Source: Pseudomonadota bacterium
Lineage (GTDB): Bacteria; Pseudomonadota; Gammaproteobacteria; Coxiellales; Coxiellaceae
DNA: 58,023 nt
Assembly (NCBI GenBank): GCA_018241585.1
Contig: JAFEDN010000480.1
Location: 1-58,023 of the forward strand
Direction: 5' to 3'
Under the pieces are notes generated by a model that was not told the origin of the DNA, did no database searches, and was given only the letters and a program-made list of their open reading frames with translations. Every line of letters begins with the position of its first letter. Position 1 is the first letter of the stretch. Both the position numbers and the translations under genes were made by a program. Below are positions 33,983 to 35,468 of this stretch, one piece after another.

Positions 33983-35311
33983 ATGGTTCAAATACCAGAG
34001 GATATCAAAGTTCCTATTCCCTCATCGACACCAAAAAAAAGAAATCTTAATCTCCAGTTGATAGTAAATGTCGAATCAGACCTATATGATGAAGATGATA
34101 TCCCTTTCTTTAAAGAACCCTATCTCATACGTGTTTTTAATATAAGAAAAGGCAAACTAAAAATTTTATTAGTTATACTTATAGAAGGCAGTTTGTATAT
34201 TTGCGCAGGTTTTGCAATTATTCGTAATGCAGCGCGCGGTTACCAGTTTATAGAGAGACTCCTTAGCACCCGGCCGAATTGTCCTCGACCACTGAGCATT
34301 ACGCTCGCCTGTTTAATGGGGGCAGTTGCTTCAATTTCTCCGTTTCATCAAATTAGCAACAGTATCAAGACCGTGCTTGGCTACTTTAAAGAAAACACAA
34401 GATCGGCTTTGGTAAAATTTTTAATGGGTTATATAGCGGTAGGAATTTGGTCTGGAGGGGGATTTGCCGAAATGGGTGGAGATTCCCTAAATAAAACATT
34501 ATCTGTTAGCTGGGGCATCCAGGATAGTGACGGCCTTAAAAGGTTTAAAAATTTTATATGGACTATGACTTTTATATCCCAATCCATGACCTTTACAGTC
34601 AAAATACTCAATTTAAAACTTCGTAAAATTCTTGCAGAGGCAAAAGAAAACCCCATAACAATTCCATCATTTTTATTGAACATTGCCATTTCAGCTTTTG
34701 GAGTTTATACCAATTATAGTTTTGGAGAACAAGCAGTAGAAAGCTACATTCCCTTCAACGAGCTTGCTATATTTTTGGGTATATTGAGTGCAGCCGGCCC
34801 ATGGGGAATGAATGTAGAAAGTTTCCGCAACATGGCTATCTCAATTAAACATTTTTTTAACTCTTGCTTGAGAAAGTCTGTTACTATAGTAAACAGTAGT
34901 ACTCCTTTGACCCAAGTTATCATTGAAGATCAATCAGCTATAAAAAAAGAAGCAGGATTTTCATTCAAGTTTTTAGACTGGAAAATGATCTTTTTATGTT
35001 TTCTTTTTGCATTCTGTTCACTTATTCCCAGTATTGAATTTAGTTTGCAGGCCAATGCCGATAAAAATGGATTTTGGCTCTACTTTTTAGTATTCTGCAA
35101 TATCGTATGTAATTTTTTCCCCAAATTTACCAATAGTATTGAGAATCGCTATAAAGAAATAACGGCTGAGGAAAAAAAGATTAACCAGGGAACTATTTCT
35201 CCAGAAATAAAAATAAATGGTAGCACTCACCCTAATGGAATTTACACCGATCATTCCAATCAAACATCCTCTGCCCCTCCTCCCAGATCAGCAATTTGTT
35301 TAGTCATGTAA
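33983..35311 (+). CDS. low-GC polytopic membrane protein ending in a CaaX prenylation box (CLVM); candidate effector
   Basis: 442-aa ORF with AAGGAA SD and multiple TM segments. C-terminal tail ...HSNQTSSAPPPRSAICLVM* has Cys at -4 followed by two aliphatic residues and Met. Confidence 0.6.
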   Translation: MVQIPEDIKVPIPSSTPKKRNLNLQLIVNVESDLYDEDDIPFFKEPYLIRVFNIRKGKLKILLVILIEGSLYICAGFAIIRNAARGYQFIERLLSTRPNCPRPLSITLACLMGAVASISPFHQISNSIKTVLGYFKENTRSALVKFLMGYIAVGIWSGGGFAEMGGDSLNKTLSVSWGIQDSDGLKRFKNFIWTMTFISQSMTFTVKILNLKLRKILAEAKENPITIPSFLLNIAISAFGVYTNYSFGEQAVESYIPFNELAIFLGILSAAGPWGMNVESFRNMAISIKHFFNSCLRKSVTIVNSSTPLTQVIIEDQSAIKKEAGFSFKFLDWKMIFLCFLFAFCSLIPSIEFSLQANADKNGFWLYFLVFCNIVCNFFPKFTNSIENRYKEITAEEKKINQGTISPEIKINGSTHPNGIYTDHSNQTSSAPPPRSAICLVM

Positions 35312-35468
35312 TTTTACCCGGATGAGGGATCGCAAGGGAGAGAGCGGAGCGCCCTTTCCCTTCATTACCGGACATCAGCTTTGCTGAGGTCCGGTATCGG
35401 AACAGGAAGCCGCTTCGGAACAAGCGGCGCAGGAAGCAATTCACCCAAAGCGTGAATTGCTGTAAAAT
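35311..35468 (+). repeat. hairpin-rich intergenic repeat, core-type copy C
   Basis: Core CGGATGAGGGATCGCAAGGGAGAGAGCGGAGCGCCCTTTCCCTTCAT. Hairpin 2 CCGGACATCAGCTTTGCTGAGGTCCGG. Hairpins GCCGCTT/AAGCGGC and GCAATTCAC/GTGAATTGC. Ends are inverted (ATTTTAC ... GTAAAAT). Starts at the last base of the upstream stop codon. Confidence 0.85.

Follow-up and report, generated by a model that had tools for sequence, protein, structure and literature searches.

What is the run of short hairpins that lies just upstream of lptD in a contig from a member of the Coxiellaceae, and why does it recur along the same DNA? The complete contig of 58,023 bp (GenBank JAFEDN010000480.1, assembly GCA_018241585.1) is called the window here, and the hairpins in question (the focal copy) end at position 35462. 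An earlier note on this DNA had described their core as a dense, modular repeat family with a possible function at the RNA or single-stranded DNA level. Our analysis demonstrates that the repeated hairpin core is the body of one family of miniature inverted-repeat transposable elements, or MITEs, and that short, truncated, or rearranged versions of it make up the remaining copies. We consider it fairly probable that this family, with its compensated stem-loops, is under selection on the folded sense strand, probably as RNA.

The hairpin core as the body of a MITE family

Full copies are non-coding sequences of 155-218 bp, overlapped by mechanical open reading frames (ORFs) only. They carry the terminal inverted repeat CAGCARTTCCCGCTGAA at each end, and in the predicted fold these ends pair as a 19-bp stem. 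The flanking 9-bp target-site duplications are perfect in 12 of 19 full copies and agree at 6-8 of the 9 positions in three more, and their sequence is different at each site. Apart from this direct repeat, the sequence outside both element ends is unrelated between copies. Terminal repeats combined with 9-bp duplications are the signature of a MITE moved by a DDE transposase with 9-bp staggered cuts.

When the copies are lined up, the element starts with CAGCAATTCCCGCTGAA, followed by an AT-rich left arm of about 60-85 nt that closes with TTTTCGYAGAAAAACC. Hairpin A consists of GATGAGGGATCGC, then AAGGGAGAGG, a loop, and CCTTTCCCTT; hairpin B has 12 pairs, with a variable stem and a C-TTT-G loop, and is followed by the near-invariant linker AACCAGGAAGC (wider form, GATAAGAACCAGGAAGC). 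The 3' arm of hairpin C together with CTG is an inverted copy of the left end, i.e., the right terminal repeat, and the 5' arm is a third copy of the terminal-repeat motif in direct orientation. Short forms lack the left arm, and modules are duplicated, deleted, or exchanged among copies.

The boundaries of the element are also visible in public sequencing runs, where contigs with the core part from the window precisely at the element end at 31280 and where read depth is 41-62 over the core versus 3 in the unique flank (about 15-20 times deeper). The prfA-prmC spacer, which is 152 nt long and filled by the element in the window, is empty in Coxiella burnetii (2 nt) and in three relatives, L099 (16 nt), L101 (1 nt), and L100 (overlapping genes). 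At position 58023, the contig stops inside an element copy, so the repeat probably broke the assembly. The earlier note had treated the core as a separate family residing inside two MITEs of the window, its MITEs B and F; this distinction falls away, because the core is the body of those MITEs, complete with terminal repeats and 9-bp duplications.

How many copies does the window hold? The 3' core AGCGNYCTTTCCCTTSATT occurs exactly six times versus 0.22 times expected (7669, 31191, 35348, and 54156 on the plus strand; 14262 and 57956 on the minus strand), and the 5' part of the core occurs three times at ≤3 mismatches, with none expected. A covariance model trained on 24 copies finds eight copies at E<1e-5 (Table 1); sense matches score 31-118 bits, and antisense matches at those sites score below 25 bits. 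With five smaller fragments beyond these, all pieces add up to 1467 bp, or 2.5% of the window. Every position listed in the earlier note does contain a copy (the eight model matches and the fragments at 3152-3190 and 53264-53296), and the analysis gave three further pieces (28077-28114, 52251-52284, and 56760-56827).

The focal copy is a short form in which the AT-rich arm is almost wholly missing. Its putative left-terminal-repeat remnant, CAGCAATTT, overlaps the final 7 codons and the stop of ORF 33983-35311, conserved GGATGAGGGATCGC stands directly before hairpin A, and a linker-hairpin module that standard copies lack is duplicated. The copy sits between this orphan ORF and lptD, with 27 nt separating the end of the element from the lptD ORF. 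The product of ORF 33983-35311 (442 aa) has no relative among 5.8 billion proteins and no Pfam or NCBIfam match. In C. burnetii (L094), an APH gene adjoins lptD, with no counterpart of this ORF between them.

Compensated stems and the sense strand

We tested for covariation in a MAFFT alignment of 24 distinct copies from five assemblies, using 500 shuffles and partner columns slid by 1-3 positions as controls. In hairpin B, 11 of the 12 pairs changed on both sides and 92.6% of the cells are paired; for hairpins A and B together, 90.8% of the cells pair versus 38-59% with slid partner columns, and none of the 500 shuffles matched the observed values. A model-guided alignment of 40 copies, which favors structure by construction, gives 94.9% pairing in hairpin B and double changes in 11 of its 12 pairs. 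Over both alignments and both helices, the slid controls pair at 33-59%. Hairpin A is compensated in L099 (GAAGGGGGAGA/TCTCCCCCTTC and CTAAGGGGAGA/TCTCCCCTTAG) and in L045 and L052 (AAGRGGGAGA/TCTCCCTCTT), and it forms a perfect 15-17-bp palindrome in three divergent copies. Hairpin C varies on both arms (AATT, AGCT, AGTT/AACT, or AAATT/AATTT), and its 23 variants contain 260 Watson-Crick pairs, 14 G·T, 1 A·C, and 11 other combinations. Compensatory change, as the earlier note had proposed, holds in all three stems. The hairpin B stems and CTTTG loop that it quoted read exactly so in the sequence, its third module (GCAATTC.../GAATTGC or GCAGCTC.../GAGCTGC) is as described, and both alignments bear out one modular repeat family in which pairing rather than sequence is kept in the stems.

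Hairpin modules also move between copies. The 5' arm of hairpin A contains a 9-nt cassette with two alleles, GGAGAGGAG, which pairs, and TTCGATGCG, which is unpaired and has a small local hairpin of its own (TCGCA/TGCGA). Each allele is combined with several different B stems (L006, L012, L020, L057, L069, and others), which means that copies exchange segments. In a short copy at L025 2949-3025, hairpin B is apparently inverted relative to hairpin C, with the CTTTG loop on the opposite strand; the B variant of this copy has an asymmetric internal loop, GAGCA/GCGCA, that is retained in either orientation (compare with L099 and L055 7418-7513).

Which form of the element is constrained? A G·T mismatch on one strand is an A·C mismatch on the other, so that a constraint on double-stranded DNA or strand-symmetric mutation would yield equal counts. 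The ratio of G·T to A·C is 9:2 in well-aligned unique B stems, about 5:0 in hairpin A, and 14:1 in hairpin C. The total of 28:3 has a nominal p of ~5e-6, and a rough count of independent events gives 15:3 (p of ~0.008); T opposite G, which the earlier note had seen in several mismatches, does predominate. Copies occupy short spacers, including those inside operons, and often lie 3-30 nt from neighboring genes. Between co-directional genes of our own ORF calls, 16 copies are in sense and 4 in antisense orientation (p=0.012), or 14 and 4 (p=0.03) when two copies that abut an IS110-family element are left out. Together, the mismatch asymmetry and the orientation bias suggest that the sense strand is constrained in single-stranded form. 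RNA is the likelier such form, because a DDE transposon with target-site duplications needs no single-stranded DNA stage and the orientation follows transcription; on this sequence evidence, the selected form is probably RNA. This much of the functional proposal in the earlier note is in keeping with our data, whereas two of the roles it named, a REP/BIME-like element and an attenuator, are not (see below).

We hypothesize that a DDE-type transposase making 9-bp staggered cuts would have spread the elements in trans and that the copies would be co-transcribed with their neighboring genes. The sense RNA would form three or four compact stem-loops without a U-tract, hence without terminating transcription, and copies that fold in this way would persist as harmless or mildly useful to the mRNA. 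In the most economical reading, it may be these compact, non-terminating stem-loops that make insertion into operons tolerable. Possible roles would be those of 3'-end barriers or processing sites that protect or define mRNA ends. A role at mRNA ends is established for repetitive extragenic palindromic (REP) sequences and the bacterial interspersed mosaic elements (BIMEs) built from them, and it has been proposed for enterobacterial repetitive intergenic consensus (ERIC), Correia, and QMITE2 elements.

That the single-stranded linker ACCAGGAAGC is near-invariant suggests recognition by a protein, perhaps the transposase or else an RNA-binding protein such as CsrA. A more far-reaching proposal would be that the element is a mobile structured RNA module under selection in the sense transcript, which spreads a post-transcriptional signal via operon spacers and gene ends. 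Such a signal may consist of stem-loops that set mRNA ends, or of the ACCAGGAAGC linker and the GGA-rich hairpin A as candidate CsrA-type sites. We think this extended proposal rather unlikely. As a separate observation, a csrA gene is present at positions 45460-45816 of the window, and its product has a 46-residue N-terminal extension, possibly from a mis-called start.

Several points weigh against selection on a folded sense RNA of a transposed element. The predicted fold energies of the two strands, -69.4 and -71.2 kcal/mol, do not separate them. Because the copies share descent and swap modules, the shuffle tests and mismatch counts overstate independence, and some of the G·T excess in hairpin C is to be expected if mutation opposite the G-rich terminal repeat is limited to the 5' arm. 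Stem A is broken by the TTCGATGCG allele, which has nevertheless spread to become the most common one in the metagenome-assembled genome (MAG) MFD00731. The ORF calls behind the orientation count are crude, none of the public RNA runs contains the MITE sequence, and the focal copy has no recognizable target-site duplication. Finally, no transposase with matching ends was found in the window or in about 380 kb of loci. An ISAs1 element in the relative L096 was rejected as a partner, as its ends (CAGGGTAAACGCATC) are unlike the MITE ends; ISAs1 is a weak candidate family solely for its CAG terminus and its 8-10-bp duplications. The sole transposase of the window belongs to an IS1380-family element (9466-11060; transposase gene at 9757-10947, minus strand) and was also discarded, with unrelated 16-bp inverted ends (TATCCCGGATATTTCA / ATCCCGGATATTTCA).

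Alternative explanations for the hairpins

Could the elements be purely selfish DNA, with stems that are kept by DNA-level causes and RNA that has no role? These causes would be inverted transposase-binding motifs and the template-switch correction of near-palindromes, since template switching in replication tends to turn near-palindromes into perfect ones. Such an origin suits hairpin C, which is made of two copies of the terminal-repeat motif, but hairpins A and B are unlike the terminal repeat and show the strongest covariation. Likewise, both strands fold equally well, yet strand-symmetric causes do not predict the excess of G·T over A·C of 9:2 in B and 5:0 in A, nor the 16:4 orientation bias. 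The abundance of a stem-breaking hairpin A allele in one genome, the reassortment of modules, by which entire hairpins can swap as units, and the absence of the MITE sequence from the public RNA runs are all consistent with selfish DNA; the persistence of one mismatched column across several subfamilies is not. We regard purely selfish DNA as a real possibility, though not a probable one.

The elements could instead act as transcription signals in cis, either as intrinsic terminators or attenuators or by providing a promoter for a small RNA (sRNA). There is a precedent in C. burnetii, in which the sRNA CbsR16 takes its -10 box from a copy of QMITE2 (Wachter et al. 2018, BMC Genomics 19:247, PMC5896051). 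TATAAT-like strings are present in the AT-rich arm, and a pyrimidine-rich stretch antisense to the extra hairpin of the focal copy was flagged as terminator-like by a scan. However, consensus promoter and terminator scans of three copies returned nothing inside the elements above shuffled expectation, the stems of these three copies lack a following T-run in the sense orientation, and copies reside between tightly linked operon genes such as prfA and prmC. We consider a role in transcription initiation or termination, including the attenuator role envisaged by the earlier note, highly unlikely.

A REP/BIME-type system, as known from enterobacteria and pseudomonads, in which palindromes are spread by a REP-associated tyrosine transposase (RAYT; Y1 HUH) acting on single-stranded DNA hairpins, resembles the MITE in its short, extragenic, GC-rich stem-loops and linker motifs arranged in modular mosaics. 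The classical roles of REP/BIME sequences are co-transcription with genes and protection of mRNA 3' ends, and a single-stranded DNA substrate would likewise be compatible with a stem that tolerates G·T on one strand. The terminal inverted repeats and 9-bp duplications of the full copies are nevertheless hallmarks of DDE transposition that are absent from REP/BIME, which are tied to RAYT; this argues against the membership suggested by the earlier note. The search for a RAYT that it recommended turned up no Y1 transposase domain among about 60 ORFs of the window that were compared with Pfam or NCBIfam, and the stem feet have no conserved GTAG-type tetranucleotide. A further likeness is that both are targets of IS110-family elements (IS621 and ISPpu9 in the case of REP): such an element lands in the MITE end, ISPpu9 sits in REP sequences of Pseudomonas putida, and IS110-family elements typically land in REP (PMC12288879). 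Overall, a REP/BIME-type system is extremely improbable.

We see hardly any chance that the element is a known structured RNA, i.e., a hammerhead ribozyme, a riboswitch, or an RsmY/Z-type sRNA. A hammerhead was considered on account of CTGATGAG, which is followed later by CGAAAC or CGGAAC (CGAAAC in two modules), and GGA motifs are frequent; most copies, however, have CCAAAC, AAGAAC, or TCAAAC where a hammerhead needs an invariant GAAA. A gathering-score Rfam scan of the window yields tRNA-Gln only, and permissive scans of two copies gave no hammerhead and otherwise chance-level matches. The hammerhead idea was dropped after these scans.

Other copies, related elements, and implications

Table 1 Copies of the MITE in the window, modules of the focal copy, and IS110-family insertions in MITE ends. 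Positions refer to the window unless a locus is named; model match, match to the covariance model.
Feature	Position	Strand	Model match	Details
Focal copy, short MITE form	35289/35311-35462	+	35315-35411 (+), 88 bits	BLAST to full copies, 35297-35462
Putative left-terminal-repeat remnant of focal copy	35289-35297	+		CAGCAATTT; flanks compared by eye
Hairpin A of focal copy	35334-35362	+		AAGGGAGAG / loop AGCGGAGCG / CCTTTCCCTT; one G·T pair; fold
Hairpin B of focal copy	35367-35395	+		ACCGGACATCAG CTTTG CTGAGGTCCGGT; 11 Watson-Crick pairs and one A·G mismatch; fold
Duplicated linker-hairpin module of focal copy	35396-35435	+		Linker ATCGGAACAGGAA; extra hairpin GCCGCTTCGGAACAAGCGGC (35409-35428); second linker GCAGGAA
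Hairpin C of focal copy	35436-35462	+		GCAATTCACCC AAA GCGTGAATTGC, then TG; 3' arm is right terminal inverted repeat; element end 35462
Full MITE, 183 bp	31098-31280	+	31154-31255 (+)	Left terminal repeat CAGCAGTTCCCGCTGAAG; right terminal repeat, reverse complement of CAGCAGCTCCCGCTGAAG; perfect 9-bp duplication CGCTCCATT at 31089-31097 and 31281-31289
Full MITE, 218 bp	54028-54245	+	54119-54220 (+)	97% identity to 31146-31280; perfect 9-bp duplication GTTAAACCT; upstream of ftsE
Decayed full MITE, both terminal repeats	52062-52216	-	52087-52188 (-)	Flanking 9-mers agree at 7/9; between rpiA and ftsY
Additional half hairpin A	52251-52284			Near decayed MITE 52062-52216
Short form (left-arm end, A, B, linker, variant C)	7617-7768	+	7633-7733 (+)	Fills 152-nt prfA-prmC spacer, sense
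Truncated decayed copy, hairpin A only	14203-14316	-	14228-14315 (-)	Antisense to vapC and tolC
Degenerate copy, hairpin A only	40790-40861	+	40792-40861 (+)	Overlaps last codons of rsmA by 10 nt (40790-40799); upstream of usp gene
Composite copy cut by contig end	57871-58023	-	57910-58007 (-)	Upstream of M48 peptidase gene; order in own orientation: B 3' arm, linker, hairpin, A 3' half, B, linker, hairpin, right terminal repeat
Solo left terminal repeat and part of AT-rich arm	56760-56827	-		CAGCAATTCCCGCTGAA at 56811-56827, providing final 5 codons and stop of M48 peptidase ORF 56812-57876
Left-end fragment	28077-28114	+		CAGCAATAATTCCCGTTATACTATAATACATTGAAAAATA; sequence comparison
Solo hairpin-C-like fragment	3152-3190	+		GAGCAATTCACGCTCTGCAAGTGAATT; sequence comparison
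Internal-deletion fragment	53264-53296	+		Left-arm end AATAATTTCCGTAGAAATCCTATC joined to hairpin A end CTTCATTC
IS110-family insertions	L039 3556-5087; L062 236-1767; L086 1-1465; L008 3642-5175; L057 286-1822			Three in left end, two in right end

The family is not confined to the window. It is present in four more assemblies (MFD00731.bin.2.180, MFD10064.bin.2.12, an ERZ23398518 bin, and ERZ25039465), with one further copy on a JGI contig, and the covariance model gives 40 matches over 270 kb of sequence. When one genome per species was searched for the core pattern, the outcome was mostly single chance matches, plus 21 loci in MFD00731.bin.2.180, two in MFD10064.bin.2.12, and one in a third MAG. 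The window is distinct from the MAGs found in this way, as the coding DNA they have in common is 77% identical. A metagenome scan with a 25-base gapped pattern gave a single match, and a plasmid collection contained no match to the MITE family. Public runs that contain parts of the contig are activated-sludge metagenomes only, and the two DNA runs that match it do so mostly with the repeat sequence itself. The PrfA encoded in the window has 70% identity to C. burnetii PrfA and at most 86% to proteins from uncultured relatives; by domain scans of its ORFs, the window carries lptD-surA-pdxA-rsmA, hemA-prfA-prmC, a resistance-nodulation-division (RND) efflux operon, and ftsY/ftsE/ftsX. These features point to an uncultured Coxiellales-like gammaproteobacterium as the source. 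An exact look-up of the SurA encoded in the window returned no record.

Correia (NEMIS) elements of Neisseria and ERIC elements (also called intergenic repeat units [IRU]) of enterobacteria are likewise small and non-autonomous, with inverted ends, full and internally deleted forms, insertion sites beside or between genes, co-transcription with genes, and hairpins that are processed by RNase. Correia elements differ from the MITE in having a TA duplication, 26-bp ends, and one long hairpin instead of a 9-bp duplication and three local stem-loops, and there is no sequence similarity. The BOX elements of Streptococcus pneumoniae are intergenic, contain the modules boxA, boxB, and boxC in variable number, and have stable predicted RNA folds; their sequence and host are unrelated, and they have no clear fixed-length target duplication.

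A closer likeness is to QMITE2 of C. burnetii, an element of 150-190 bp with inverted ends and direct repeats of 7-11 bp, mostly 9, which also exists in short REP-like forms without the 5' part or duplications, is targeted by IS1111, and supplies with its ends the last codons and stops of C. burnetii genes (PMC5896051). The MITE described here belongs to the same bacterial order, is of similar size (183-218 bp in full form), and has terminal inverted repeats and mostly 9-bp duplications. It shares with QMITE2 the coexistence of full and short forms, locations at ORF 3' ends or intergenic sites with an overlap of a few codons, strong predicted folding, and its use as a target by an IS110-family element. 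However, the two have no detectable sequence similarity, and the palindrome beside IS1111 in L094 gives no BLAST or model match (21 kb of C. burnetii compared). The copy that flanks IS1111 is one long GTAG-type palindrome, whereas the MITE has three short stem-loops and a conserved linker. Judged by sequence and layout, the MITE is an independent family of QMITE2-like design with REP-like stem-loops.

The relationship with IS110-family elements is seen in MAG MFD00731, where a 1.53-kb element of this family is inserted in the MITE terminal repeat at five places with an identical insertion point (Table 1). The junctions are constant and read ...CAGCG / AGTTGCTATGATG...CACATAGCG / GAATTGCTG, with slashes at the insertion boundaries. 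Its transposase matches the NCBIfam model "IS110 family RNA-guided transposase" and is 26% identical to that of IS1111. The end variant CAGCGAGTTGCTG, found in two uninterrupted MITEs (L012, right end; L055, left end), could be a footprint left by the loss of this element. Besides its part in the MITE itself, the terminal repeat would also act as a landing site for an IS110-family element in a related genome.

Other repeats and genes at these loci deserve mention. The 273-nt prfA-prmC spacer of L102 (11084-11356) is filled by a different long perfect palindrome, GCGTCATTGCGAGCGTTAGCGAAGCAATCCAGT..., which by BLAST and the model is not part of the MITE family; a sequence similar to it flanks a MITE in L069. 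The window contains at least 7 tandem 33-bp units (43041-43363) within ORF 42952-43575 (minus strand, 207 aa, no Pfam match), which would encode an 11-residue repeat. Neighboring genes at 47271-48181 match the type VI secretion amidase effector Tae4 and the immunity protein Tai4, an unexpected pair in a relative of Coxiella and Legionella, whose hallmark is type IV secretion. Positions 15991-17883 encode a 630-aa protein that has a eukaryotic-type Ser/Thr/Tyr kinase domain; such kinases occur among the effectors of intracellular bacteria, and the relatives L096 and L102 have kinase genes next to prfA. An arginine deiminase cluster (arcA, ornithine carbamoyltransferase, and carbamate kinase) is located at 48213-51322, and a gene for a VapC-type tRNA(fMet) endonuclease toxin at 13726-14139, with the decayed antisense MITE copy just downstream.

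Bacterial MITEs have received little study, and what is known of them in the Coxiella/Legionella lineage comes mainly from QMITE1 and QMITE2 of C. burnetii. Environmental relatives of Coxiella carry an independent element of the QMITE2 design, and the insertions in its ends suggest a recurring arrangement in this order, the MITE as a safe landing site for an RNA-guided IS110 element. The elements of this family break assemblies, add or replace gene-terminal codons, and split operon spacers, and it would be advisable to mask or label them when MAGs of this kind are annotated. The unusually clean covariation in three local stems and the one-sided tolerance of G·T make this family a tractable case for studying selection on MITE transcripts.

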